DNA from: Myxococcota bacterium
GTDB taxonomy: Bacteria; Myxococcota; UBA4151
Assembly (NCBI GenBank): GCA_036338695.1
Contig: JAYZBQ010000012.1
Location: forward strand, 1 to 51,043
Length of the DNA: 51,043 bases
Reading direction: 5' to 3'
Shown here: positions 1 to 12,777 of the stretch, in pieces
Position numbering within the stretch: position 1 is the stretch's first letter
How the letters are laid out: every line of letters begins with the position of its first letter
Made by a program: the position numbers and the translations under genes
The notes under the pieces: generated by a model
The model's database searches: none
Told to the model about the DNA's origin: nothing
What the model saw: the letters and a program-made list of their open reading frames with translations, nothing else

Positions 1-177
1 GTCGCTGACTGGGATAACGACCACCGCCTGCACAGCGTGGTCTGTGTCGATTCGAGCTCCCCTCTCGACGCCAGGCCGAGCTGAAGCTTGCCCCCGACTC
101 GCCGTCACCCTTGTTGCTCCACGCGCTGTCCGCTCGCCCCACGGCGCTCATCAGCATCGGTGTAACCGCGGCTCGGT

Positions 178-357
178 TCAGGGCAGGGCCTTGGCCAGCT
201 TCACAAAGCTCTTCGGCATCTCAGTCATCGAATAGCCTCGACCGAGGTAGAGTTGTTGAAGCTTTGTGTTGTTCTCTTCGGTGTAGGTCGCCGCGACGGA
301 CAGGCCCTGCTCGAGCATCCACCGTTCTCCCGTCGCCAACAGGCGAATGGCCACGTG
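178..357 (-). pseudogene. C-terminal fragment of a GNAT acetyltransferase
   Basis: Translation VAIRLLATGERWMLEQGLSVAATYTEENNTKLQQLYLGRGY resembles the GNAT C-terminal N..(A)..LY..GY/F motif; the N-terminal half is missing, with DUF2200 immediately upstream. Confidence 0.5.
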
Positions 358-385
358 AATGGAGCCTCGGGAGGCACCTGTCCTC

Positions 386-736
386 CTATTCTCTGAGGAT
401 CTTGGCCATGGACTTCCCTTTGGCCAGCTCGTCAATCAGCTTATCCAGGTAACGGATCTCCCGCATCGTCGCCTCTTCGATCTCTTCCACGCGCACCCCG
501 CAGACGACCCCGGTGATCTTCGCCCTCAGGGGGTTCAGCCGGGGGGCCTGGTTGAAGAAGGTCTCGAGGTCTGTCTCCTCGTCCAGGCGCGCCTCGAGTC
601 CCCCCTGATCATACCCAGTCAGCCATTGGACGATCTCATCCACTTCCGCTTTCGTCCGGCCCTTTCGCTCGGCCTTCCCAACGTAGAGGGGATAAATCCT
701 GGCGAAGCTCATGGCGTAGATCTTGTGCTTACTCAT
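386..736 (-). CDS. DUF2200 family protein
   Basis: [42 protein letters not shown]...[15 protein letters not shown]...[15 protein letters not shown] is typical of the family; ATG at 736. Confidence 0.9.
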
Positions 737-744
737 CGAGACCT

Positions 745-826
745 CTGACTCTTTGAACAAGAGTGTGACCCGTTCCGTACGCCTCTACAATCGAGCCCTG
801 AGCCGGCACAACCGTCCCGGCGCTCC
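745..826 (-). repeat. att-like cassette boundary element (degenerate core)
   Basis: 753-791 matches 5389-5427 at 31/39 positions (ttgaac...agtgtgac.cgttccgta.gc..ct.caat); lies 8 nt upstream of the DUF2200 start. Confidence 0.7.
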
Positions 827-850
827 AGAGGTCGACCCGGCCAACCCGAT

Positions 851-2008
851 TCAGGGGTTGATGGTTGTACCGTTGAGTAGAATCCGCTCCCAGATCCGGA
901 AGCGCTCGGGGCTCAGAGCCTCCAGGTCTTCGAGGCTCCCTTCGACCAGACACTGGGCATAGATCCGTGAGAACTCGGCCATGTCTTCCCATTCGTTGTT
1001 ATTGCCGTACCCGGAGGTGCGGTTGTCGTCGCTGCGAATCGCGTGTCGCCAGATGGGGTTGAGGATGTTGTTCTGAGGTTCAAGGGTGGGAGGGTCGCCG
1101 ATCCGCGTGTACTGCTCGAACGTATGGCCCAGCTCATGAAGCAGGGTGCCCGCGCTCACGGTCTGGGTGTCGATATAGTTCATGCTGCCGTACGCCGCGG
1201 CGCCGCCACCAAAATACGACCCGTGTAGAAACTGAACGCCGTGGCCGAACTCGGTGATGATCTTCAAGCCATACCAGTACTCGACGGGGATCCGCTCCAG
1301 ACGGTCGAGGACGTCCTCAATGTGGGTGTAGGTGATGGGTGGGTCAGCGCTGATGTTCACCTCGAACGTCACCGTGTGGGACTCATAGGCGTTCGCACGG
1401 AGCTCCACGTGATACTTGGTGAGCGCGTGGTCCGCGTTGAGGTCGTAGGTGCAGGTCTCCGCGCCGCAAGCCTCCTCGCTGCAGGTGGCGCAGTCGACGT
1501 CGAAGCAGACGCACTTTTCGCTGTCGGACCAGCTCAGGATCTCCGCGGTTCCGACCTGTGGGAATCCCGCCCAGTCGAGGTCTTGCTTGGGAAGGGAGCT
1601 CGCGATCATGATCGTGCCGATCCCGGTCCAGGCGAAGTCTTCGTCTTCGGGGGTGGTGTCGGTGCCCTCGGGCGGCGGTATGGGGCCCTCTGGCACCTCA
1701 GGATCTACCCAGTCGGGGACCTCCGGCCCGGCATCGGACGCGGCATCGGAAGCGGAGTCGGAAGCGGAGTCGGAAGCGGAGTCGGAAGCGCCATCGGCCG
1801 ACGTGTCGGGCATGTCCGGCACGTCGCTCACCGAAGCGTCTACCGCGCCGCCGGCGTCTTCCAGGGCATCGTCCGCGCTCATGTCCGATGACACATCGTC
1901 CGCCGAGAAGGCGTCGGTCTCAGGTGCTGATTCGGGAGAAGGATCCGAACAGCCGAACAGCAGGAAGGCCAGAGAGATCAGATAAGGAGCCAATCGTGCA
2001 CAATTCAT
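851..2008 (-). CDS. Lipoprotein with zincin-like metallopeptidase domain
   Basis: Lipobox LFGC, acidic D/S/A linker, LLHELGH (HExxH) followed by YG..N..EDMAE; ATG at 2008 (TTG 2017 is an alternative start). Confidence 0.7.
   Translation of the reverse strand: MNCARLAPYLISLAFLLFGCSDPSPESAPETDAFSADDVSSDMSADDALEDAGGAVDASVSDVPDMPDTSADGASDSASDSASDSASDAASDAGPEVPDWVDPEVPEGPIPPPEGTDTTPEDEDFAWTGIGTIMIASSLPKQDLDWAGFPQVGTAEILSWSDSEKCVCFDVDCATCSEEACGAETCTYDLNADHALTKYHVELRANAYESHTVTFEVNISADPPITYTHIEDVLDRLERIPVEYWYGLKIITEFGHGVQFLHGSYFGGGAAAYGSMNYIDTQTVSAGTLLHELGHTFEQYTRIGDPPTLEPQNNILNPIWRHAIRSDDNRTSGYGNNNEWEDMAEFSRIYAQCLVEGSLEDLEALSPERFRIWERILLNGTTINP
1746..1790. repeat. 12-bp coding tandem repeat (tcggaagcggag, ~3.75 copies; SDSA)
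   Basis: Read directly; lies in the linker of the lipoprotein. Confidence 0.9.
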
Positions 2009-2056
2009 GGGAGCCAACCTAGCATTCAGTGCTCCTCACGCAAGGCGTCCGCCGGT

Positions 2057-2653
2057 TCATTTGCGGACAGAGGCCCCTTCAGACAGTCCCGCCTGACGGG
2101 CTTCCCAGTCAGGCCGCGTGATGGCGAGCAGCCACTCGTCAATCCAGGTTCCCTGCTTGAACACGCATCGTCGAAGGGTGCCTTCACACACGAACCCGAG
2201 CTTCTCCATCACGCGCCGAGAACCGTCATTGCCGACGAACGCCTTACCGAACACCCGCTCCGCGCCACGCTGACCAAAGGCCTCATCGACCAGGGCGCCA
2301 AGCGCTTCGGTTGCGTAGCCTTTCCCATGGGAATCAACGGCGAAAGCGAAGCCAAGATCGACCATTTGAGGGTCGCGCTCCACCGGACACAGACTGGCGC
2401 CACCAATGTATCTGCCCGATGTTCGCTCAATGACGGCGGTGTTCAGATTGAGACGGTAGTCCAATGGGTCGCACGAGGCGCTTTGCGCCCACCAATCGTG
2501 AAGCTCCTGGACTCCGGATGGACCATCCCACAGAAGGGTGTCGAAGATATTCGTGCCGATGATGGAGTGATAGAAGCCGTCGACCTGTTCAGGGGTAGGC
2601 CAGGTCAGCAGGAGACGTTCGGTCTCGATCAGAGGTGGCCGAAGTTCAGACAT
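2057..2653 (-). CDS. GNAT family N-acetyltransferase (RimJ/RimL-like)
   Basis: IETERLLL, HGKGYATEAL, GNDGSRRVMEKLGF.CEG motifs; ATG at 2653 chosen so the gene starts after the boundary core. Confidence 0.9.
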   Translation of the reverse strand: MSELRPPLIETERLLLTWPTPEQVDGFYHSIIGTNIFDTLLWDGPSGVQELHDWWAQSASCDPLDYRLNLNTAVIERTSGRYIGGASLCPVERDPQMVDLGFAFAVDSHGKGYATEALGALVDEAFGQRGAERVFGKAFVGNDGSRRVMEKLGFVCEGTLRRCVFKQGTWIDEWLLAITRPDWEARQAGLSEGASVRK

Positions 2654-2677
2654 CCTTAGACTCCTCAATGGGTCCGG

Positions 2678-2760
2678 GTCTCCTATTGAACCGTTGCTCA
2701 AGAACGACTCCAACGGCTTGTCCTTGCCTGTTGTGACGGCCGGTGTCTCCGTTTGTCACG
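2678..2760 (-). repeat. att-like cassette boundary element
   Basis: Partial core gtctcctATTGAACCG (2678-2693); CAAcggcTTG at 2711; arm TGTCTCCgttTGTCACG (2744-2760) containing the protease stop codon. Confidence 0.75.
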
Positions 2761-3697
2761 ATGTCTGCGCCAATGGCGCGATCGCCACCGCCAGGGGTTC
2801 TTTGAGGTGATGAACGTCTACGCATCTCCGATACCTGTATGGGTGATCTGGATAGAGGTCCTGGGAGCCACCGCCCCGGTAAATGCCCACCAGCTGCCCG
2901 TCGTCATTGAGCAACGCCGAACCACTTGAACCAAGCACAGCGTCCCCATCGGAGAACCACTCCCGCTGTCCTGCTCCTGCAATGACGAGGCCTGGGGAGT
3001 ATCTCAATTCGTGATTTGCTTCTTCAAACCCGAGGAACTCTCGCTCGGATTTCGACCTAAATGACCGATGTGGGTACCCCCATTGCCACACTCTTTCGTG
3101 GAGGGGTGGAGCGCTCCCGGTGATGGCGACCGGCGCGATGTGATCCGTGGGCTCTATCTTGAGGACCGCGAGGTCGAGCTCGGGGTCGACATAGCAGACT
3201 CGGACAGGACCGAGGTCATCTCTGTTGTCCGTGAGAATCCGCAGATGCGGAGCGGGCACCCCCTCGGTGTCAAAGCTTCGCGCGGGTATCCCGTGGGTCT
3301 TCTGGGGACCGGTCACGAGATGATGGTTGGTGAGCAGATAACCACTGCGGGAGACCAACGTCGCTGTGCCAAAACCCGTCAGCTCCGTTTGGTAGGGAAG
3401 CGTTCCGCCGTTGGCGAGATGAAGCACCAATTCGTGGCAAAAGCCTCTCGCCCAGTCGGGTCCTGGAATCTGGAGGTCAAGGTCGTCGATTTCCGGACGG
3501 GTCCACCCACAACGTACGGTCTCGACCCCGGAACCATCGACCTCGAAGCCACTCCACTGTCGGGCATCCTCAGGGCTGTCGAAGAGGCGATGGTGGAGCT
3601 TTCGACCCGTGTCCAGCCGGAGCACGGATGCCGTCGCTGCCAGAACCTCTGCCGGGACCGCCGAATTTTTCTGTGCTGAGAAGAAGCCAGTGCCCAT
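2756..3697 (-). CDS. Trypsin-like serine protease (S1)
   Basis: Triad motifs LLTNHHLV, LDLAVLK and GSSGSALL...GQLVGI. Confidence 0.85.
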   Translation of the reverse strand: MGTGFFSAQKNSAVPAEVLAATASVLRLDTGRKLHHRLFDSPEDARQWSGFEVDGSGVETVRCGWTRPEIDDLDLQIPGPDWARGFCHELVLHLANGGTLPYQTELTGFGTATLVSRSGYLLTNHHLVTGPQKTHGIPARSFDTEGVPAPHLRILTDNRDDLGPVRVCYVDPELDLAVLKIEPTDHIAPVAITGSAPPLHERVWQWGYPHRSFRSKSEREFLGFEEANHELRYSPGLVIAGAGQREWFSDGDAVLGSSGSALLNDDGQLVGIYRGGGSQDLYPDHPYRYRRCVDVHHLKEPLAVAIAPLAQTS

Positions 3698-3703
3698 GGG
3701 TCA

Positions 3704-3787
3704 CCTGAACATTGAGCCGAAAGGTAATCTGCTGGGTGAGGATCGGTAAGAACACGACTGTAGAAGTCACTCCCGCCCCTCGTCGCC
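3704..3787 (-). repeat. att-like cassette boundary element
   Basis: Core cctgaACATTGAGCCG (3704-3719); 44/56 identity to 6291-6346; CGTCGCC at +77 (3781). Confidence 0.85.
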
Positions 3788-3839
3788 GGACTTCCGTTGG
3801 AGAAGGAGAACCTCACGGGCGGCGACCTTAATCTATTGC

Positions 3840-3863
3840 GAAACGCTTGATATCAACAACTCG
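3840..3863. promoter_or_regulatory. Overlapping inverted pair of IHF-like sites
   Basis: gAAacgcTTGATA and TATCAAcaacTcG each differ by one base from the IHF consensus WATCAANNNNTTR. Confidence 0.35.
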
Positions 3864-4095
3864 GTGGCGAATGGGTCCATTGCCGGAGACATGGGCCTCT
3901 CGACAGGTCTCCCGGTCCATTGATTTCCGAGATCCCGAAAGAGGTGTGAGGGGCTTCTGAGGGTGTGGCGGGTAGAGAGAGCAGCGGCCTGGCGGCTCTA
4001 ACTCCCTAAAATTCGACACGATTGGGGCGCCAGCTATCCTCAATTCCAGATTTCGACCGTCTGTCGAAGTCCTGGATCGGGCTACGGAGGGAGCG

Positions 4096-4500
4096 ATGAA
4101 CACAAAGAATATACTCACGCTGATGGGTGTCGTTGTTGGACTGCAGGGCATCGGCATTTTTGCTGGAGCTGAGCCCATTACAACCGAGGCCTTCGCTGCG
4201 CTGAAGCCCGACGCTGTCGGCATCCAGATTGGAGCCATGCTACATGAGGCGATGGGCGTCATGATGCTCATGGTTGGCATCATTCTGTTGTTCGCCCGGA
4301 GTCTGGAGCCCGCCGCCGGCGCCCGGGTTCTGATGGGCGCGTCCATCGGCATCACGCTGACGGTCGGTCAGGGCTTCTACCACATGTTCACCACCGTGGT
4401 TGCGCCCCCGCTTCCTGTGCTCCTGCTGACGAGCGCGATGGCGGTGCTCGGCTTCGTGACAGCTGCAAAGGCAAAAGGCAGCGCAGAGGCCGCTGAGTAG
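4096..4500 (+). CDS. Small integral membrane protein (about 4 TM), unknown function
   Basis: 134-aa ORF with four hydrophobic segments; SD ggaggg upstream. Confidence 0.8.
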   Translation: MNTKNILTLMGVVVGLQGIGIFAGAEPITTEAFAALKPDAVGIQIGAMLHEAMGVMMLMVGIILLFARSLEPAAGARVLMGASIGITLTVGQGFYHMFTTVVAPPLPVLLLTSAMAVLGFVTAAKAKGSAEAAE

Positions 4501-4516
4501 AGGAGCGCATCGCCCA

Positions 4517-4537
4517 CGTTCCCTCTGAAGGGGAACG
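4517..4537. terminator. Hairpin between convergent genes
   Basis: cgttccc-tctgaag-gggaacg stem-loop; no U-tract. Confidence 0.35.
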
Positions 4538-4602
4538 CCGTCCGGGTCTCTGAAGCTCGACCACAGGATTATCCAGGTGTCGGCTTGCGGTCCCCCCGTT
4601 GG

Positions 4603-5370
4603 TTAACGCTTTTCCCAGGTCGAATTAACAGGCCCTCGGATAGCCAGCACTGTGACCACGCCGTCATGATTGTTCGAGTCCAGCGCCAGGTCTTCATCCA
4701 AAGTGCGGGTGGAGTAGGTCCAGTCTGTCGGAGCGGTGAAATAGGCCAGGGCGTCTTCGGATTGAAAATCAGCGCCCTCCAAATCATCGGTGTCGACATG
4801 GTGCGCAAAGAGCACGAATACATTGCCCTCGGGGTCCGTGAGCTCATGGACCCGCATACCGGTGGTAAAGACCAGGAGGGTATCCCGTTGAACCTGCACT
4901 TCAGCCACGATACCGGCGGGCCCATGTTCTACGAGCCGCCCGGAGTGGTTGATGGCGATGAGCCGGTACTCGTCACCTGGCACGTCATCCAAGAAGTTCA
5001 CGCTATCGCTATGGCCCTCAACGACAGGGTAGCTTCTCAAGGTGGAGTGTTGCTCGGAGAAGACCGCCACCTGAGCAGGCCCCTTGGTCCAGCCCTCCGG
5101 AGGGTCGATACTCGCCCACTGCTCAAAGGTGCACTCGGGGCATTCATAAGCCAATGATGCAAAGGGATTCTCGCCGATCTGCTTGATCATCTTATGGGTG
5201 AAGACCGAGCCGCTCTCCGCCGGTTCCATCGATGCATCGGCTTCAGTCGCAGGTCCTGTATCCGCTTGGGGGGCGTCTCCCGCTCCATCGCCGCTTTCGC
5301 AGCCCAGAAGAAGCGTCATCAAGAGAGTCAGGCCAAGGGCCCAGATAGGTTTCATACGTGTATCTTTCAT
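4603..5370 (-). CDS. Hypothetical lipoprotein
   Basis: Signal peptide with lipobox LLGC, acidic linker, then a globular domain; starts 10 nt after core 5381. Confidence 0.8.
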   Translation of the reverse strand: MKDTRMKPIWALGLTLLMTLLLGCESGDGAGDAPQADTGPATEADASMEPAESGSVFTHKMIKQIGENPFASLAYECPECTFEQWASIDPPEGWTKGPAQVAVFSEQHSTLRSYPVVEGHSDSVNFLDDVPGDEYRLIAINHSGRLVEHGPAGIVAEVQVQRDTLLVFTTGMRVHELTDPEGNVFVLFAHHVDTDDLEGADFQSEDALAYFTAPTDWTYSTRTLDEDLALDSNNHDGVVTVLAIRGPVNSTWEKR

Positions 5371-5380
5371 TGTGAGGTGG

Positions 5381-5465
5381 TCTATACGTTGAACCGCAGT
5401 GTGACGCGTTCCGTAAGCGCCTGCAATGACGACGCTTCTTGAACCCTGGCCCCGCGGGTGCTCCC
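5381..5465 (-). repeat. att-like cassette boundary element
   Basis: Core TCTATACGTTGAACCG reads CGG TTC AAC GTA TAG (RFNV*) on the minus strand; GTAA at +32; variant arm TGCTCCC at 5459. Confidence 0.9.
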
Positions 5466-5496
5466 GTTTTTTTCGGACGTTTCCGTTCTCGGAAGG

Positions 5497-6282
5497 CTAC
5501 GGGCCGGTTGACGATGCCGTCAGCCGCGCTCGAAACGCCTGGAGTCCAAGGCGTTTCCTCTCGAATCTCTCTTTGCTCGCCTCGTCCGTCGTGTTCGCGG
5601 CCTGCTGGGCGGCCCACTCAATGGCACGAAGAAACACCGCATCGGCTCCTTTCGGATATCGAAAGGGGCTGGGCGCATTGGCAAACACGGCTTCTTTTTC
5701 CTCATGGGAGAAAGGCTGGCGTTTGAACCCGTTCTTTTCGTACCGAGCTCGAAACTCGAGAAGATGGGAGAACCCGGTAAGGACGAGGACCTGCCCCGAC
5801 TGTGGGAGGACGGACAGCAGGTTTTCGAACATTTTGTCGTCCCGGTCATCGTTTGTTCGCCGACCCAGGTCCAGTCCCGCAGGCGTCCACCAGTCGATTC
5901 CAGCGACCGGGATGCCGACCTGTTGTGCGACAAGCGTGGCAATGGGCATTTCCACCGGTCCAGAGGCCGGGTTCTTTCGCTCCATTTCGCCGGGTTGAAC
6001 CTCGACGACCAGCAAGGTGGGTCTGAGATTCTCGATGACCGCTTGAAGGTGACCGAGACCAAATCCAGGCGTCTCTAAATGCTGTCCGTGGATTGTCCCG
6101 AGATGGTAGACCGTAGCGCCCGTGGACGCCGTGTACTTGTCAAAGGCCGCATTTCTGGTGGCCTCAGGAGCCAGCTTGTATCCGACAAAGTATCGCACCT
6201 CTGTCACGGCCATGCTGAAAACGACGAGCGCAATCAGGGCCAAGGCCACGTATTTCATCACGGTCTTTATGGGGAACCTCAT
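5497..6282 (-). CDS. Exported or membrane-anchored TraB/GumN-like protein
   Basis: N-terminal TM; LGTIH, VE, RDDKM.EN and VLVLTG.SH pattern of the TraB/GumN(TIKI)/EreA superfamily. Confidence 0.6.
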   Translation of the reverse strand: MRFPIKTVMKYVALALIALVVFSMAVTEVRYFVGYKLAPEATRNAAFDKYTASTGATVYHLGTIHGQHLETPGFGLGHLQAVIENLRPTLLVVEVQPGEMERKNPASGPVEMPIATLVAQQVGIPVAGIDWWTPAGLDLGRRTNDDRDDKMFENLLSVLPQSGQVLVLTGFSHLLEFRARYEKNGFKRQPFSHEEKEAVFANAPSPFRYPKGADAVFLRAIEWAAQQAANTTDEASKERFERKRLGLQAFRARLTASSTGP

Positions 6283-6290
6283 TGGCTCGA

Positions 6291-6374
6291 TCTAAACGTT
6301 GAACCGAAATGTAATCTGCTTGGTAACCATCGGTAAACCCACGACTTTCAAAACCGAAGTCACCGTTTGTCACC
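6291..6374 (-). repeat. att-like cassette boundary element
   Basis: Core TCTAAACGTTGAACCG with adjacent bases reads TTT CGG TTC AAC GTT TAG (FRFNV*); GTAA at +32; arm AGTCACCgttTGTCACC (6358-6374) containing the GNAT stop codon. Confidence 0.9.
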
Positions 6375-6986
6375 GCATTTCCGCTGGAACACGCTTGGCC
6401 ATGAAGAGCGTAAGATTTCGAACAGAACAACATCCTCATAGGCCCCGGTTGCGTCCTCTTGAAAACCGTTTGGTGTGATGCCTGTCATCGAGAAGCCGAT
6501 CTTTTCGTATAGTCGTCTCGCGGCTTGATTTCGGGCCAATGTGTCCAACTCGATCTTGTGTACAGCCAAGTGCTCAAATACATACGAGATGAAGCCATCA
6601 AGAGCCGCACTGGCATAGCCCTTACGCAGCGCATTTTGCTCGCAAATCTTGATGCCGATGGAGACCTTCCCATTGACCTTGTCCCAGCCTGAGTAATTCA
6701 ATTCGCCGATGGGCATCGTCGGTTTTACAGCCTCTATGATAAATCGTCGCTCCGCTCGGAATTCGTTATCGCTCCCCGTGGAGGCTGCGACGATCTTCTC
6801 CACCTCTATTTGGCTGAGGTTCAAACCATTGGGAAAACCGACGTGGGTCATGACATCGGGGTTGTTCCACCATCGATGGAGCAATGAGGTGTCGGCACTG
6901 GTGAGACCGCGAATAATGAGACCACCACTGCCCTTTGGCGCCGACGAACGAACAATTATAATAGGGTCGTATTGATCGTTACTCAT
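6360..6986 (-). CDS. GNAT family N-acetyltransferase (RimJ/RimL-like)
   Basis: LIIRGL, RKGYASAAL and NQAARRLYEKIGF motifs. Confidence 0.9.
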   Translation of the reverse strand: MSNDQYDPIIIVRSSAPKGSGGLIIRGLTSADTSLLHRWWNNPDVMTHVGFPNGLNLSQIEVEKIVAASTGSDNEFRAERRFIIEAVKPTMPIGELNYSGWDKVNGKVSIGIKICEQNALRKGYASAALDGFISYVFEHLAVHKIELDTLARNQAARRLYEKIGFSMTGITPNGFQEDATGAYEDVVLFEILRSSWPSVFQRKCGDKR

Positions 6987-7039
6987 GGGGCATAGGACCG
7001 CTTAGTCGTAGCGTGTTCGATCTGTCTCTTTTTCCCTGG

Positions 7040-7123
7040 TCTATACATTGAGCCGATAACTAAACATTGCATGTTATCAACGGTTTACAGCCATTGTCTC
7101 CATTGAACAACGTCTTTGTCGCC
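7040..7123 (-). repeat. att-like cassette boundary element
   Basis: Core TCTATACATTGAGCCG (RLNV*); exact IHF consensus TATCAAcggtTTA at 7075-7087; TGTCTCC at 7095 and TGTCGCC at +77 (7117). Confidence 0.9.
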
Positions 7124-7183
7124 AAAACCACCAGGGGAGTTGGTCATCCAGTAAGGGACCACCAACTCCCCTGGTGGTTTTGG
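7122..7183. repeat. Perfect 23-bp inverted repeat with 16-nt loop
   Basis: ccaaaaccaccaggggagttggt (7122-7144) and accaactcccctggtggttttgg (7161-7183). Confidence 0.95.
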
Positions 7184-7333
7184 GTATCTATTTGAGGAGG
7201 TCGTTGAGCACCGTATCAACGAGCTTCCGCTTCGACCGAGGTGAGAAATCCTGGTCGTGTTTGATGCCCGTCTTAGCCGGGTGTAACCTGATGGCGACGT
7301 ACTTTCGGCTGGGGACGATTGGGGTAGAGAACG

Positions 7334-8074
7334 ATGAAGAAAAGCTATTACGAAGGCCATGAGATCGCCTATCAAAACATCGAAGCAAAGGGTGGTAACG
7401 CCTGGCGGTGTACGGATTTTGATCAGCACCAAATCCGCGACTTCGTGATGGGCGCCCTCGACCGCATCGGCTTTGCTGATGGGACCGGACGACGGTGCCT
7501 CGTGATCGGTGTTGGTACGGGTCCAATGGCATGCGAGCTCGCACGCCTTGGTTTCGAGGTGCATGGCATCGACATCTCTGAAACAGCCATAAAGATGGCC
7601 GATAAGCAGGCGATTGAACGAGGATTGACCATCACGTATCGAGTCGGCGACATCTGCAAAGACGACCTTGGTACTGAACGCTACGACCTCATTTTAGACA
7701 GCCACTGCATGCATTGCATCGTCACGGACACCCATCGAGAGGCCGCGTTCACCGCCGTGCACCGTGCACTCAAGCCCAATGGCTTCATGGTCTTACATAC
7801 CATGTTGCTCGGCACCGCCCACGGGTATTACGGCGGACCTGTCGACGAGGATGGCATCCTCTGGATGAAACTGAATGAGCAAACCGGTTATGAGTATGTC
7901 GAGGCGGTGCAGCGTGAAGATGGGTGGTATGCGCCAACCCGACGACTCATCAAGGACGAAGACACCCTGAATCGCAGTCTAAATCAGTTCGGCTTTACCG
8001 TTACCTGGAGTCAAACAGTCCATGAGGCGTCAACCGGCCTAAACGACTACGAAGGCATCTGCCAGCGCGGATGA
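7334..8074 (+). CDS. Class I SAM-dependent methyltransferase
   Basis: LVIGVGTG motif I, GIDISE, GDI, YDLILDSHCMH, RALKPNG. Confidence 0.9.
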   Translation: MKKSYYEGHEIAYQNIEAKGGNAWRCTDFDQHQIRDFVMGALDRIGFADGTGRRCLVIGVGTGPMACELARLGFEVHGIDISETAIKMADKQAIERGLTITYRVGDICKDDLGTERYDLILDSHCMHCIVTDTHREAAFTAVHRALKPNGFMVLHTMLLGTAHGYYGGPVDEDGILWMKLNEQTGYEYVEAVQREDGWYAPTRRLIKDEDTLNRSLNQFGFTVTWSQTVHEASTGLNDYEGICQRG

Positions 8075-8288
8075 CAGCTCTGCCCGCAGTACTCGCGGCG
8101 TCTGATCCACCGCAGCTCGGACCCGGCGCTGAAAAGCGAAGCTTCAATACGAGGGATCAAGCTCTCGTGGCTTGATGCGTTCTATTTTTCGCTGTCCCCA
8201 GATTGTCGCCATCTTGAGGGCGATTGGGAGCCGATTTTGACGCAGGTGTTCGGCCTGATTGGTTGAAATGACGTGCTCAGGCAAGGGT

Positions 8289-8372
8289 TCTACACGTTGA
8301 GCCGTAGTTTCATCATGCTCGTAACTTGCTATGATTACTGCTTATCACAAGCCATCGCCCCCGTTTGTCACC
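8289..8372 (-). repeat. att-like cassette boundary element
   Basis: Core TCTACACGTTGAGCCG (RLNV*); GTAA at +32; TGTCACC at +77 (8366) containing the peptidase E stop codon. Confidence 0.9.
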
Positions 8373-9102
8373 GTTTGATATGAGGCGGCAGTTCGCGTGT
8401 GGGAATCGGAGTCAGCTTGGCTTTCTCCCCACCTGGGGTGACTCGATAGGCCCTCTTACCGGGCACCGAGCATACCGACTCCACCAACTGGGTTCCCCGG
8501 TAGAGAACACCACAGCTGTCGTCTACGGCAATCCCGGGCGGGAGGGTTCCGTTGGAGATGCTCTCTTCGTAGATCATCTGGCGTTCCGGGTCCCCGTCGT
8601 AGTGGGGGCAATAACTCTCCGGGAGAAAGCCCAGCCCATCACTGAGCACACGAAGAGGGCGCCCCCATGAGTCGGTGATGGAGCCGCTGAACCAGCACAG
8701 TGCACCTGCGCTGAGGCCACAGAGAATGGTTCCTTGTTCCCAGGCCTGTCGAAGGGTTTTGTCAATGCCGTGGGCCCGCCACACGAGCAGCATCTGAAAG
8801 GAGTTTCCTCCGCCCACATAGATCACGTCCTGGTCGAGCAGGTGCTCGTGGGGCTCGGGCTGGTTGTAGCGCGTCAGGCTCAAGTGGGAGTGTTCCGTCC
8901 CCAAGGTCCCCATGGCGGCGTGAAAGCGCTCGATGTACCCCTCGGCATCGCCGCTCGCAGTGGGAAGAAAGCAGACCTTGGGTCGCTCTTTGCCAGTCAG
9001 GGCTAGAATGTATTGATCGAGGGCCAGGTTGTCCGGCTCCATCGAGAACCCACCACCGCCCATGGCGAAGATGGTTTGATGCTCTGGAGGCGTCTCAGAC
9101 AT
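8368..9102 (-). CDS. pepE: Peptidase E (S51 family, class I glutamine amidotransferase-like fold)
   Basis: FLPTASGD, IYVGGGN, GLSAGA nucleophile motif, CPHYD; start ATG overlaps the end of ychF. Confidence 0.9.
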   Translation of the reverse strand: MSETPPEHQTIFAMGGGGFSMEPDNLALDQYILALTGKERPKVCFLPTASGDAEGYIERFHAAMGTLGTEHSHLSLTRYNQPEPHEHLLDQDVIYVGGGNSFQMLLVWRAHGIDKTLRQAWEQGTILCGLSAGALCWFSGSITDSWGRPLRVLSDGLGFLPESYCPHYDGDPERQMIYEESISNGTLPPGIAVDDSCGVLYRGTQLVESVCSVPGKRAYRVTPGGEKAKLTPIPTRELPPHIKR

Positions 9103-9109
9103 TGAACCG
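9094..9109 (-). repeat. ychF 3' end, putative attB/attL core
   Basis: ctcagACATTGAACCG reads CGG TTC AAT GTC TGA; prototype of the repeated cores. Confidence 0.85.
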
Positions 9110-10192
9110 GAAGTGCATCACGTCGCCGTCAGCGACGGTGTATTCCTTGCCCTCAATGCGGAGCTTGCCGACTTCACGGCAGCCCTTCTCGCCGCCATGG
9201 GCGACGAAGTCGTCGAAAGCCATGACCTCGGCTTTGATAAAGCCCTTTTCAAAGTCGGTGTGGATGACGCCTGCGGCTTGCGGGGCGCTGGCGCCTGCGG
9301 GGATGGTCCAGGCGCGCACCTCCTTTTCACCGGCGGTGAAGTAGGTCTGTAAGCCGAGCAGGGCGTAGCCCGTCCGGATCAGCCGGCTGAGACCAGGCTC
9401 TTCGATGCCCGCCGCTTCCAAGAACTCGGCGCGCTCGCCCTCGTCGTCGATCTCGGTGAGCTGCGCCTCGAACTCAGCGCTGATCGTCACGACCGGGGCG
9501 CCCTCCTTGTCGGCCAGCGCACGGACGCGCTCGACCAGGTCGTTACCGGTTGCCGCCTCTTCTTCGCTCACGTTGCATACGTACATGACCTTCTTGGCGG
9601 TCAGCAGATGCATCTCGCGCAAGGCTTCGTCTCGAGCGGGGTCGGCGGGCAGTGAGCGGTAGGTCTGCCCGTCATCGAGCGCCGCTTTGACCGCCTTAAA
9701 GTGCACCAGCGCCGCCTTTTTCTTGGGGTCGCCCGCTTTCGCTTCGCGCTCACCGCGCTCGACACGTTTAGCCATCGACTCCATGTCTTTGAGCAAGAGC
9801 TCGGTATCGATGATGTCAATGTCTCTTAAGGGGTCAACGGAGCCCGAGACGTGGTGAATGTCTTCGCTCTCAAAGCAGCGGACCACGTGGGCGATGACGT
9901 CGCACTCGCGGATGTTGGCGAGGAACTGGTTGCCCAAGCCTTCGCCTTTGCTGGCGCCCTCGACCAAGCCCGCGATGTCGACGAAGGTCATCTGCGTGGC
10001 GAGCGTGCGCTGCGGGTTGACCAGCTCGGTCAGCTTAGCGAGCCGTTGGTCCGGGACGGGCACCTGCCCGACGTTAGGCTCGATGGTGCAGAACGGAAAG
10101 TTGGCGCTCTCGGCGCGCGCGTTCCCCAGCGCGTTGAAGAGCGTCGATTTGCCGACGTTGGGGAGCCCAACGATGCCGCATGAGAATCCCAT
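9095..10192 (-). CDS. ychF: Redox-regulated ribosome-binding ATPase YchF
   Basis: GIVGLPNVGKST, NFPFCTIEPN, DIAGLV, TGS domain ending DGDVMHFRFNV. Confidence 0.98.
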   Translation of the reverse strand: MGFSCGIVGLPNVGKSTLFNALGNARAESANFPFCTIEPNVGQVPVPDQRLAKLTELVNPQRTLATQMTFVDIAGLVEGASKGEGLGNQFLANIRECDVIAHVVRCFESEDIHHVSGSVDPLRDIDIIDTELLLKDMESMAKRVERGEREAKAGDPKKKAALVHFKAVKAALDDGQTYRSLPADPARDEALREMHLLTAKKVMYVCNVSEEEAATGNDLVERVRALADKEGAPVVTISAEFEAQLTEIDDEGERAEFLEAAGIEEPGLSRLIRTGYALLGLQTYFTAGEKEVRAWTIPAGASAPQAAGVIHTDFEKGFIKAEVMAFDDFVAHGGEKGCREVGKLRIEGKEYTVADGDVMHFRFNV

Positions 10193-10257
10193 AGTGTGTC
10201 TCCTGAGTGTGCGCTTGCTCGCCTCGGTGTCCGCAAAGCAGCGGATGTAACCGGGTG

Positions 10258-11013
10258 TTAGCCGAGGATGTTGTAGCCGGCGTCGACGTGGAGGACCTCG
10301 CCGGTGACGCCGGTGTTGGTGAGCAGGAAGAGCGTCGCGGAGGCGACCTCCTCGGTGGTGATGTGGCGCCGCAAGGGCATGCGCGCCTCGGCGTCGCGCA
10401 TCAGGTCGCGAAAGCCAGGAATCCCCGCAGCAGCCAGCGTGCGAACAGGACCAGCGGACAGGCAGTTGACGCGGATGTCATCGGGCCCGAGGTCTTCGGC
10501 GAGGTAGGCGGCGGTCGCCTCAAGCGTCGCCTTGGCGACCCCCATGACCTTGTACATCGGCACCACCTTCTCGGCCCCGTAGTAGGTCATGGCGACGACG
10601 CCGGCGCCAGGGCTGAGCAGGGGCTTGAGGGCGCGACACAGCGGGATGAGGCTGTAGGCCGAGATGTCGACGGCTTGGATAAAGTCCTGCCGCGTGGTCT
10701 CGTGGAAGCGGCTGTCAAAGGCGTCCTTGTTGGCGAAGGCGATGGAGTGCACGACGTGATCGAGGCCGCCCCAAACGTCTCTGATCCCGTCAGCCAGCGC
10801 ATCGAAATGCGCCTCGTTGCAGACGTCGAGCTCGAAGTACTGGCTTACCCCGATGCGCTCGCCGAGCTTGCGGACGCTGCCCTCCATCCGCTCGTTGAGG
10901 TAGGTGAACGCCAGCTCGGCGCCGGCCTCGTGACAGGCTTGTGCGATCGCCCAGGCCAAGCTGCGCTGATTGGCGACCCCACAGACAAGAACTCGTTTTC
11001 CCGACAGATTCAT
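10258..11013 (-). CDS. fabI: Enoyl-ACP reductase (NADH)
   Basis: GVANQRSLAWAIA, HSIAFA, YKVMGVAKATLE, VNCLSAGPVRTLAA, HVDAG. Confidence 0.95.
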   Translation of the reverse strand: MNLSGKRVLVCGVANQRSLAWAIAQACHEAGAELAFTYLNERMEGSVRKLGERIGVSQYFELDVCNEAHFDALADGIRDVWGGLDHVVHSIAFANKDAFDSRFHETTRQDFIQAVDISAYSLIPLCRALKPLLSPGAGVVAMTYYGAEKVVPMYKVMGVAKATLEATAAYLAEDLGPDDIRVNCLSAGPVRTLAAAGIPGFRDLMRDAEARMPLRRHITTEEVASATLFLLTNTGVTGEVLHVDAGYNILG

Positions 11014-11169
11014 GGCTTTCTCCCCAAATCGCCTTCGGCGCTGCGCTCGTAGACACGGCCAGGCCTGAATCGCAAGCCTAGAGGAATCAGGGTGTACTAT
11101 TGATTGCATGGTGGGGCGGGGTTCGGTAGCACGCCGCCTACCAAGGCGTGCCTTGAGGAGGACAGCCTG

Positions 11170-12777
11170 ATGGCGAGTGGACACCACGATCTCTCCGCGT
11201 TGAACATCAACCCCCAAGGCGACGTGCATTGGAACCTCACGGGGCGTGAGTTGCTTGCGCACGCAGCACGCCGCCAAGAAGGTGAGTTTACCGCGCACGG
11301 CGCCTTTTTGGCGGTGACCGGTGAGCGAACCGGCCGGTCAGCGAACGATAAGTGGACCGTCAAGGAGCCGTCGACGGAGGACCTGATCTGGTGGGATGGG
11401 ACGGTGAACCGCCCGTTTGATGAAGAGCGCTTCGTGCTCCTGCGTGACCGAGCGGTCGCCTACCTTTCGGAGCGTGACGAGCTGTTCGTCCAAGACCTGA
11501 TCTGTGGCGCCGAGCGCAGCGAGGCGATCGAGTGCCGCGTGGTGACGATGAACGCCTGGCACGCCGCGTTTGCTCGCAACATGTTCGTGCGGCCAAGCGC
11601 TGAGGAGCTCGCCAAGCATCAGGCGGAGTGGACGGTGATCCATGCGCCGCACCTCGAGATCGAGGACTGGAAGGAGCTCGGCCTCAACAGTCACGTAGGC
11701 GTACTCTTCCACCCAGGGCTCAAGCAGGTGGTCATCTGCGGGACGCGGTACGCAGGCGAGATCAAGAAGTCGATCTTTAGCGCGATGAACCTGATGTTGC
11801 CGGGCAAGGGGATCCTGCCGATGCACTGCTCGGCGAACACCACAGGCTCGAACACGGCGGTGTTCTTTGGCTTATCGGGCACCGGCAAGACGACCTTGAG
11901 CGCAGACCCGAAGCGGGCGCTGGTTGGCGATGACGAGCACGGCTGGGGCGCTAAAGGGATCTTCAACTTCGAGGGCGGATGCTACGCCAAGATGATCAAG
12001 CTCGACGCCGAGGCGGAGCCTGAGATTTTTGCGACGACCCGCCGCTTTGGGACCATCCTTGAGAACGTGATCTTGGACGAGAACGGCGTCCCCGATTTTG
12101 ACGACAACCGCCTGACCGAGAACACCCGCGGCTCGTACCCGCTTGAGTTCATCGACAACCGGGTGGAAGAGTCCAAGGCCGGGCAACCACAAAACGTCGT
12201 GTTCTTGTGCGCCGATGCCTTTGGCGTGCTCCCGCCCGTCAGCAAGCTCACCCCGGACCAAGCAGCATACCACTTTATTTCGGGGTACACGGCGAAGGTG
12301 GCGGGTACCGAGATCGGTGTCAAAGAGCCGCGCCCGGCCTTCTCGGCTTGCTTCGGTGCGCCCTTCATGCCGCGCCACCCCTCGGTTTACGCGGACCTCT
12401 TGAGTCAGAAAATCGAGGAGCACGGCTGCAACGTCTGGCTGCTCAACACCGGCTGGATCCGCGGGCCCTACGGGGAAGGGGAGCGTATCTCGATCAAGTG
12501 GACCCGCACCCTGCTGAACGCTGCCTTAGACGGAACGCTCGACCGGTTGCCGATGGAGCGCTTTGATCGCTTCGGCTTTGAGATCCCGACCCGATGTCCG
12601 GGGGTCCCGAGCGAGATCCTCAACCCGCGTAGGACCTGGCTGGATCAAGCCGCCTACGATCGGCAAGCGGACAGCCTGGTGGGCATGTACCTTGAGAACT
12701 TTGAGGTGTTCGCAGACGGGTGTGATGAGGCGGTGCTCGCCGCGGCGCCTTCCGTGCTCGCAGATCAGCCCACCTAG
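11170..12777 (+). CDS. pckA: Phosphoenolpyruvate carboxykinase (ATP)
   Basis: YAGEIKKS, MHCSAN, FGLSGTGKTTLSAD, GDDEHGW, NFEGGCYAK; SD gaggagg before ATG 11170. Confidence 0.97.
   Translation: MASGHHDLSALNINPQGDVHWNLTGRELLAHAARRQEGEFTAHGAFLAVTGERTGRSANDKWTVKEPSTEDLIWWDGTVNRPFDEERFVLLRDRAVAYLSERDELFVQDLICGAERSEAIECRVVTMNAWHAAFARNMFVRPSAEELAKHQAEWTVIHAPHLEIEDWKELGLNSHVGVLFHPGLKQVVICGTRYAGEIKKSIFSAMNLMLPGKGILPMHCSANTTGSNTAVFFGLSGTGKTTLSADPKRALVGDDEHGWGAKGIFNFEGGCYAKMIKLDAEAEPEIFATTRRFGTILENVILDENGVPDFDDNRLTENTRGSYPLEFIDNRVEESKAGQPQNVVFLCADAFGVLPPVSKLTPDQAAYHFISGYTAKVAGTEIGVKEPRPAFSACFGAPFMPRHPSVYADLLSQKIEEHGCNVWLLNTGWIRGPYGEGERISIKWTRTLLNAALDGTLDRLPMERFDRFGFEIPTRCPGVPSEILNPRRTWLDQAAYDRQADSLVGMYLENFEVFADGCDEAVLAAAPSVLADQPT

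Follow-up and report, generated by a model that had tools for sequence, protein, structure and literature searches.

In the 51,043-nt stretch analysed here (hereafter the window; positions 1‒51,043 of contig C12 in G000, the genome of an uncultured marine bacterium of the Myxococcota), the 3′ flank of ychF carries an array of small gene cassettes, each closed by a short DNA element that ends in a copy of the end of ychF. The end of ychF is a site-specific insertion hotspot, which we hold with high confidence because of an exact shared junction, repeats restricted to the 3′ flank of ychF, an intact ychF and variable content behind it. The stacking of cassettes itself is well supported, and we lean towards the view that it proceeds in the manner of an integron, with a recombinase acting in trans. 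The G000 assembly comprises 3,355,572 nt in 99 contigs and is 93.6% complete. Its family (f1) is represented by G000 and only five other species genomes; G001 belongs to the same genus, while G004, G005 and the metagenome contig L055 represent another genus of f1, and f24 is a second family of the same phylum. The window starts where its contig starts, so the array cannot be followed to its distal end.

The repeated core (consensus TCTAnACRTTGARCCG) was searched with up to two mismatches in the window and up to one in the whole assembly. It is exact at 5381, 6291, 7040 and 8289 and has two mismatches at 3704, always on the plus strand and in direct orientation with the end of ychF. These five cores compare with 0.16 expected by chance, and none of 100 shuffles reached five. 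The 16-mer is not spread over the genome: the assembly holds four forward and no reverse matches, all four inside the array, and the reversed-pattern control gave none. The gene itself and its end read as follows.

9095 to 10192, minus strand: ychF, 365 aa, intact, with full-length Pfam matches to MMR_HSR1 and YchF-GTPase_C.
9094 to 9119, minus strand: native ychF-end core in the sequence, ..GATGCACTTCCGGTTCAATGTCTGA; the start codon of pepE is the ATG within CAATGT.

The original prediction held that the last 16 bp of ychF recur at five sites. Four of these are exact copies of the consensus and the one at 3704 is imperfect, whereas the ychF copy itself (9094‒9109, CTCAGACATTGAACCG) is off the consensus at 3 of 16 positions, because ychF of G000 stops with TGA and the repeats have TAG. 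In the relatives G002, G004 and L055, the ychF ends (..GTGTAGA; ..CGGTTCAAYGTGTAGA) match the consensus fully. The further claims of degenerate cores at 2678 and 745 and of spacings of 805, 1249, 749, 910, 1677, 1026 and 1933 bp were both borne out. The last ~15 nt of ychF with the stop codon form the anchoring site of the array, the equivalent of attI or attB. Public marine assemblies bridge the cores at 8289 (X1 record 8 and X2 record 14), 7040 (X1 record 6) and 2678 (X1 record 1), and a chimeric contig is therefore unlikely, with the qualification that X1 may be the source sample. No tRNA or tmRNA was found near the array.

Repeats of the ychF end are not general to ychF, since other bacteria showed 6 forward and 5 reverse copies in 743,225 nt downstream of ychF. 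Among 80 metagenome loci with ychF, only one close relative (L055) was present, and the remainder held no elements. A loose core pattern run over 401 genomes of the phylum matched no more often than its reversed control and is uninformative; nothing claimed here depends on G195, an unpublished genome in that set. Two exact core matches in viral contigs both lie within open reading frames (ORFs) of 1,143 and 1,325 aa and are attributed to chance. In two loci of two other families of the phylum (L046 from G021 and L038 from G036), the last ~15 nt of ychF are tandemly duplicated directly after the stop, within the first 130 nt, as CGGTTCAACGTGTGA-TG-CGGTTCAACGTGTGA and GTTCAATGTGTAGAAC-GTTCAATGTGTGA; these duplications may have been left by the same recombination, or they may represent empty units of minimal size.

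Alignments show that each core is the terminal part of an element of ~90 nt, described here in the direction of ychF. The element begins with a box, GGTGACAAACGG, which is doubled in some copies and whose TGA serves as the stop codon of pepE, of the acetyltransferase at 6360‒6986 and of the protease. A type-specific part of ~55 nt follows, and the element closes with ..T(T/C)AC..CGGYTCAAYGTnTAG. Ten good elements from six genomes, aligned on the invariant TCAA, conserve TTAC at −24 and T(T/C)AC at −12. The elements are 70‒88% alike and fall into at least two types, the E6291 type (E6291, E3704) and the E5381 type (E5381 plus a remnant at 745). A profile built from six elements of G001, G004, G060, G065 and G100, with none from G000, served as an independent test of membership; on the whole of G000 it matches only 6289‒6380, 5379‒5469, 3699‒3793 and 8286‒8376. 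The matches in G000 are thus confined to the array. The profile misses E2678, E745 and the left part of E7040, which shows that these are weak members.

8286 to 8378, minus strand: E8289 (core 8289‒8304), independent profile E 3.2e-5.
7037 to 7129, minus strand: E7040, exact core at 7040‒7055, left part atypical, missed by the independent profile.
6288 to 6380, minus strand: E6291 (core 6291‒6306), the type common to G001, G004, G065 and G100, independent profile E 3.1e-22; 88% identical to the G001 element.
5378 to 5470, minus strand: E5381 (core 5381‒5396), the second type, also in G060, independent profile E 2.6e-8.
3701 to 3793, minus strand: E3704 (core 3704‒3719, two mismatches), E6291 type, independent profile E 9.9e-8.
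2675 to 2765, minus strand: E2678, degenerate, retaining the box CGTGACAAACGG and CGGTTCAAT, missed by the independent profile.
742 to 834, minus strand: E745, degenerate, E5381 type (79% identity with E5381 over 39 nt), not found by the independent profile.

Only a small part of the element resembles ychF. In an anchored count, which we prefer to an earlier and cruder semi-global test, the mimicry is limited to ~25 nt, from about −15 to +9 around TCAA. Just upstream, identity to ychF is 6‒10 of 15 positions, and over the next 15 it is 2‒8 (2‒4 in six of the seven elements). In the semi-global test, the upstream 70 nt were no more like ychF than shuffles, except for one element of L055 (z 7.1). 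The non-ychF part is attached to unrelated genes. The E6291 type follows the GNAT acetyltransferase and the pair of 255-aa and 134-aa proteins in G000, DUF2200 in G001, G065 and G100, SelO in G004 and a DUF4386-like gene in G100; the E5381 type follows the 261-aa gene in G000 and DUF3347 of a Cus-like operon in G060. Taken together, the two types stand behind at least eight genes that are unrelated to each other.

Each interval between elements in the window holds one or two genes.

8368 to 9102, minus strand: cassette 1, peptidase S51, PepE-like (Pfam PF03575, E 1.4e-48).
7056 to 8285, plus strand: cassette 2, S-adenosylmethionine (SAM) methyltransferase at 7334‒8074 (Pfam), against ychF.
6360 to 6986, minus strand: cassette 3, GNAT acetyltransferase (Pfam), with the lowest G+C in the array (0.514).
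5497 to 6282, minus strand: cassette 4, 261-aa membrane-anchored protein, possibly TraB/GumN-like (no Pfam or NCBIfam match; Atlas lead 0.81).
3794 to 5377: cassette 5, 255-aa secreted protein or lipoprotein at 4603‒5370 (minus strand) and 134-aa membrane protein at 4096‒4500 (plus strand), no family matches.
2756 to 3697, minus strand: cassette 6, trypsin-like serine protease (Pfam Trypsin_2, E 9.2e-19).
851 to 2713, minus strand: GNAT acetyltransferase at 2057‒2713 (Pfam) and 388-aa secreted protein at 851‒2017.
386 to 760, minus strand: DUF2200 gene (Pfam).

The gene labels of the original prediction stand for DUF2200, the two GNATs, the protease, the methyltransferase and peptidase E, all by Pfam, whereas its lipoproteins have no family above the cut-off and its TraB-like protein has only the weak Atlas lead. 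Four array proteins (261, 255, 134 and 388 aa) have no family above the cut-off. Eight of the ten array genes are co-oriented with ychF, and genes start 0‒30 nt past a core. At the ychF end, pepE overlaps the ychF stop by 8 nt and has its own stop codon within the GGTGACAAACGG box of the next element. Neither promoter-like sites (3 vs 2.6 expected) nor terminator-like sites (7 vs 8.2 expected) are in excess in the array. The composition of the array is foreign, with a G+C of 0.584 vs 0.639 for the genome and a third-position G+C (GC3) of 0.60‒0.74 vs 0.79‒0.83 in ychF, fabI and pckA; at the far end, DUF2200 and the 388-aa gene look native.

Small, mostly one-gene, co-oriented units between sites of attC-like size suggest a canonical integron, or a CALIN (a cluster of attC sites lacking an integrase), that merely adjoins ychF. 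attC sites range from 57 to 141 nt, and GNATs and methyltransferases are common integron cargo. However, the elements do not fold like attC sites. RNAalifold found no consensus pair among seven elements, and 17 of 18 single-strand DNA folds (nine elements, both strands) were no better than shuffles, with z above −2; one had z of −2 or below. The prediction that the sites lack attC hairpins thus agrees with the folding results. In addition, the only tyrosine recombinase found in G000 scored 129 bits against the integron-integrase model TIGR02249 (cut-off 265), and the site copies a coding 3′ end. We regard a canonical integron or CALIN as very remote.

Outside G000, the elements were sought with R1, a sequence-only covariance model of the seven elements, in 151 genomes of the phylum. 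At E ≤ 0.001, six genomes carry elements and all belong to f1 or f24: three of the six f1 genomes scored (G000, G001, G004) and three of six in f24 (G060, G065, G100). G005 gave a weaker match (E 0.005). In the order of f24, 3 of 22 genomes match, all from f24, and none of the 16 outside this family. G004, G060, G065 and G100 have their elements on the contig of ychF, downstream of the gene, and elements occur only behind ychF, except for one truncated copy in G060.

The ychF of f24 is only 56‒58% identical to that of the window. The arrays of f24 differ in content. In G065, ychF is followed by a core, DUF2200 (86% amino acid identity to that of the window), an E6291-type element and the flank. 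In G100, the order is ychF, a DUF4386-like gene, an element, DUF2200 and another element. G060 has two small ORFs, a CusCBA-like resistance-nodulation-division (RND) efflux operon with DUF3347 (8.5 kb), an E5381-type element and the flank. In G065 and G060, the core passes into the same flank at the same base, GTCCACCCT(A/C)AGTCC, and the DNA behind it is 78% identical, despite different genera, cassettes and element types. This shared junction is as predicted by precise insertion between the ychF stop and the original downstream DNA.

The same comparison bears on the idea that there is no dedicated system, in which the elements would be conserved intergenic signals (signals for RNA processing or regulation in a ychF operon, for example) and homologous recombination after DNA uptake would vary the content. 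The lack of a linked recombinase fits this idea, as do the likeness of the elements, which could act as short homology arms, and the tight, mostly co-oriented packing of the genes. On the other hand, the elements have no conserved structure and no Rfam family above threshold; the sub-threshold matches fall only on a hairpin at 7122‒7186 and at 5532‒5661 within the 261-aa gene. Signals and homology would also have to account for the restriction of the elements to the ychF flank and for a junction at the same base in two genera with different element types. Moreover, the nucleotide identity of ychF between the families is ~70‒72%, probably too low for homologous exchange by the generally known threshold. 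We consider an origin by homologous recombination improbable.

Within f1, the gene content after ychF differs among relatives and breaks at core borders. ychF and SelO are 94‒96% identical among G005, L055 and G004, and divergence begins 10 nt after the SelO stop. From there, a common GNAT gene lies at ~0.05 kb in L055, 1.6 kb in G005 and 1.85 kb in G004. The interval consists of a 51-nt displaced ychF end in L055; of a long element, ~1.4 kb of other DNA and a second element in G005, followed by the same GNAT as in L055; and of an E6291-type element and two other genes in G004, followed by a GNAT of 78% identity. In G001, DUF2200 sits on a 7.5-kb contig, flanked by an E6291-type element and by a second core, where the contig ends. 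Its position relative to the 388-aa gene differs: ychF-ward in G001, on the far side in G000. In G001 and G003, the 388-aa gene is then followed by a conserved neighbour instead, without any element; since it is syntenic with this neighbour and has native-like GC3, it may lie outside the mobile part. In two f1 genomes, the contig breaks near the site: that of G002 stops 40 nt after ychF and the ychF contig of G005 stops 0.4 kb after it, inside SelO, while ychF of G001 was not found in its assembly.

Homologs of the window's cargo also occur away from ychF. G004 has homologs of pepE (69% amino acid identity), the methyltransferase (45%) and the 255-aa protein (54%) at 15‒22 kb from ychF, in another order and without cores, and the pepE homologs of G001, G004 and G005 all lie elsewhere without cores. 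The pepE of G001 (60%) is less similar to that of the window than the pepE of G004, which argues that the window copy is not a vertical ortholog.

These data can also be read as scars of larger, integrase-bearing islands (phage-, satellite- or tycheposon-like) that entered in succession at the 3′ end of ychF and later lost their integration modules, leaving cassettes that are immobile now. The displaced end in L055 is clearly derived from ychF, the distal cores of the window are more decayed than the proximal ones, and the G060 unit is 8.5 kb long, with many genes. In tycheposon islands, as reported (10.1101/2020.12.28.424599), successive integrations push older elements inward, and degenerate remnants occur. 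However, outside L055 the likeness to ychF is confined to the last ~25 nt of the element, and the ~60 nt upstream are not ychF-like; this upstream part is conserved across two families in two types, which neutral scars should not be. DUF2200 forms a ~0.5-kb single-gene unit between good cores in G001, G065 and G100. The arrays of G000, G001, G004, G005/L055, G060, G065 and G100 showed neither an integrase nor a piece of one in Pfam searches of ORFs and in genome scans. For these reasons, together with the attachment of the types to at least eight unrelated genes, we favor small cassette units and consider island scars unlikely.

Marine contigs of four public runs, used as assembled contigs, have loose ends at the edges of elements when aligned with the window. 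Three X2 contigs match rightward from 6292, the outer edge of a core, and their leftward continuations agree only at 0.59. Two X1 contigs match up to 6353, the edge of the box, and then pass into different sequence that still has a box-like CCGTTT. One X2 contig joins 6337 to 4057; this joint runs backwards, is not core to core and is uninterpretable. Several cassettes are without cover in X2, X4 and X6 while their neighbours are covered, which, in contigs only, is not evidence of absence.

The original prediction also stated that the units carry no integrase of their own. The search results agree with this: Pfam found no recombinase among the window ORFs, covered from 1 to 12,777. The sole PF00589 match of G000 lies on another contig (C53); this protein is Xer-like, with 327.7 bits to the XerC model (cut-off 335), and its gene stands beside one for a TIGR02232 (myxo_disulf_rpt) protein, a hint of Myxococcota. 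Two Xer-size tyrosine recombinases each were found in G004, G005, G060, G065 and G100, and two in G001 together with a third, 411-aa open frame; the single one in G000 is probably due to the incomplete assembly. The 13‒15 kb retrieved around each of four larger integrase genes of G001 and G003 hold no ychF-like site, and the genes upstream of ychF in G065 and G100 include no recombinase. The invariant TCAA and the TTAC motifs resemble the cleavage sites of IS608, which prompted the idea of a Y1 enzyme (IS200/IS605, REP-RAYT). This was rejected: the Y1 transposase PF01797 was found in only two of five carriers, not in G000, G001 or G065, and the elements have no hairpins.

Xer is the only candidate type in all carriers, and nothing positive supports it. 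If the host XerC/XerD moves the cassettes, which would be a special case of integron-like stacking that names the enzyme, it helps that Xer-size tyrosine recombinases are the only site-specific recombinases in every carrier, serine recombinases having been found in none of six and Y1 transposases in two of five. Set against this, the core shows, by eye, no 11-6-11 dyad, and Xer is universal, whereas arrays were found in only two of the families sampled. The best dif candidate of G000 (C58:79831, with the XerD-arm-like TTATGTAAAGT) was found by a simple pattern with a general consensus as template, and by eye a dif likeness of the core seems improbable. We think it quite unlikely that Xer is the enzyme.

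Integron-like stacking by a recombinase acting in trans would work as follows. Site-specific recombination at the final ~15 nt of ychF (CGGTTCAAYGTnTAG) would create a platform for gene capture. Each cassette would open with a short leader and continue with a single gene or a few, most of them in the orientation of ychF and most with no space for a promoter; it would end with the ~90-nt 3′ element, in which the GGTGACAAACGG box comes first and often supplies the stop codon, phased TTAC motifs follow ~12 nt apart, and the ~25-nt mimic of the ychF end comes last. Recombination of an element core with the ychF end or with another core would insert, remove or reorder cassettes and leave ychF intact throughout. 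Newer cassettes would lie next to ychF, and older ones would be displaced outward while their cores decay. The recombinase would be encoded neither in nor beside the array. In this model, circular intermediates, the mobility of single cassettes, co-transcription from ychF and the enzyme are inferred.

Several observations weigh against this model. No tyrosine recombinase was found on the array contigs of carriers, and no serine recombinase in six carriers, G000 included; the dif candidate has, by eye, at most a 6-mer in common with one element type. Core-to-core circles, deletion junctions and empty sites were not seen in public contigs, although contigs alone say little here. The three different elements that follow SelO in G004, G005 and L055 are a poor fit with the rule that each cassette keeps its own 3′ element, the plain displaced ychF end of L055 is what classical island integration would leave, and the unit of G060 is large, with many genes. 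Since DUF2200 evolves slowly, its 86% identity between the families is weak proof of transfer. Finally, all genomes are draft metagenome-assembled genomes (MAGs), 12 in total for both families.

Among known systems, the array is functionally closest to the sedentary chromosomal integron, without being a strict integron, for lack of an adjacent intI and of attC folding. Integrons are the classic means by which bacteria store and rearrange single genes; they are defined by IntI, attI and folded attC sites, and sedentary chromosomal integrons have homogeneous attC sites. As in the latter, small, mostly one-gene, promoterless and co-oriented cassettes are stacked at a fixed anchoring site. A recombination element of ~60‒140 nt at the cassette 3′ end with the crossover at its very end, few element types common to unrelated genes and a cassette order that varies between relatives are likewise shared with integrons. 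In contrast, the array has no adjacent intI, its elements do not fold and are presumably double-stranded sites, and its anchor belongs to the coding 3′ end of a housekeeping gene and is copied at the end of every element.

The staphylococcal cassette chromosome (SCC) composite islands at rlmH of staphylococci are tandem 3′-end islands. Integrative elements are likewise stacked in tandem at a conserved gene's 3′ end in the tycheposon islands of Prochlorococcus (10.1101/2020.12.28.424599) and in the ssrA-specific islands of Dehalococcoides (PMC3146451). The array shares with these three a direct copy of the target end at each border and an intact target gene, and also arrivals that push older units away, scattered degenerate copies and accessory foreign cargo. 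Their units measure 5‒60 kb and many have their own integrase and integration module, whereas the units of the array measure 0.5‒1.9 kb (8.5 kb in G060), have no integrase that we could see and add ~60 nt of conserved sequence that does not come from the target. The Xer-dependent dif modules of Acinetobacter plasmids and IMEX elements resemble the array in being small, non-autonomous one- or two-gene modules between recombination sites, with a host recombinase encoded elsewhere; they use dif-like dyads of 28 bp whose orientation alternates, on plasmids or at chromosomal dif, while the sites of the array are direct, apparently not dif-like and located at ychF.

ychF is an integration site in other systems as well. 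Some pipolins with large serine recombinases are reported to integrate there (10.1101/2024.05.22.595293); pipolins are large and self-replicating and bring their own recombinase, whereas no serine recombinase was found in six array genomes. A pneumococcal satellite prophage is reported to integrate upstream of ychF. Neither is similar to the array. The original prediction did not recognize a described system. This needs qualification, since tandem stacks with copies of the target 3′ end are known from the tycheposon and Dehalococcoides ssrA islands; the miniature, integrase-less, integron-like form at ychF was not found in full-text searches of an open-access library, which is not proof of absence.

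The array may even be a second, independent solution to the task of the integron, in which the last codons of ychF serve as the capture site, double-stranded elements of ~90 nt, in a few sequence types with phased TTAC motifs and the mimic of the ychF end, as the equivalents of attC, and possibly XerC/XerD or an unrecognised family encoded elsewhere as the recombinase, with a cassette pool shared horizontally by at least two families of one phylum. We put this forward as a possibility that we slightly doubt. Its architecture is that of an integron, yet its sites do not fold, they copy the end of an essential gene, and it brings no recombinase of its own. If this is true, gene-cassette platforms are more diverse than integron-finding software sees. 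Such an array would explain the exchange of accessory genes (peptidases, acetyltransferases, a metal-efflux operon) in small-genome marine bacteria without visible mobile elements, and it offers a short, concrete DNA site for tracing an unrecognised or moonlighting recombinase.

Several further features of the arrays were noted. The truncated element of G060 (contig C219, L168, 2903‒2976) is of the E6291 type, ends in ..GATTAGATTTCG without a core and lies behind a 375-aa ORF, away from the contig of ychF; a cassette inserted at a secondary site could explain it, as could a rearrangement. The operon of the same genome (L167, G060:C371, 5169‒12001) encodes an outer-membrane factor, an HlyD-type adaptor with a metal-binding domain, an AcrB-type pump and DUF3347, so cargo can be a whole operon. 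Between G005 and L055, which are otherwise ~96‒98% identical, there is a second indel of 956 nt farther along this region, behind a thioesterase gene (L145, G005:C47, reverse complement 4662‒5618, vs L055 6137‒6142).

The inverted cassette 2 has its own terminator-like hairpin at 8156‒8176. A second, near-perfect hairpin at 7122‒7183, between the 7040 element and the methyltransferase start, has 28-nt arms that are 93% complementary and a 6-nt loop; in Rfam it scores only below threshold (DUF1874 RNA, 28.1 bits vs 42), and it may terminate transcription in both directions and so shield the inverted cassette. G001, G004 and L055 have, behind their cores, sequence similar to the ~60 nt that directly follow the 8289 core. 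The 255-aa protein of cassette 5 has a 51% identical paralog on contig C25.

DUF2200 has a solved, unannotated structure (3c9p) and is widespread and slowly evolving; in other phyla, near-full-length homologs of 50‒74% identity were found at 39 loci, and a 40th match is partial. It adjoins ychF in only one of these 40 loci, so a role as part of the machinery was rejected and it is treated as cargo. That one locus, in a Planctomycetota MAG (L176, 3880‒4720), has DUF2200 (72% identical) 50 nt past the ychF stop with no element after it. Behind DUF2200 at the contig start of the window, an 85-aa ORF (178‒435, minus strand) looks like the C-terminal portion of a GNAT, and positions ~246‒266 bear a weak likeness to the core; the whole may be a decayed element with a cassette remnant. 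Inside the 388-aa gene, positions 1717‒1812 contain a 12-nt unit (CGGAGTCGGAAG-like) that is present six times in tandem and encodes a short acidic, serine-rich repeat on the coding strand.

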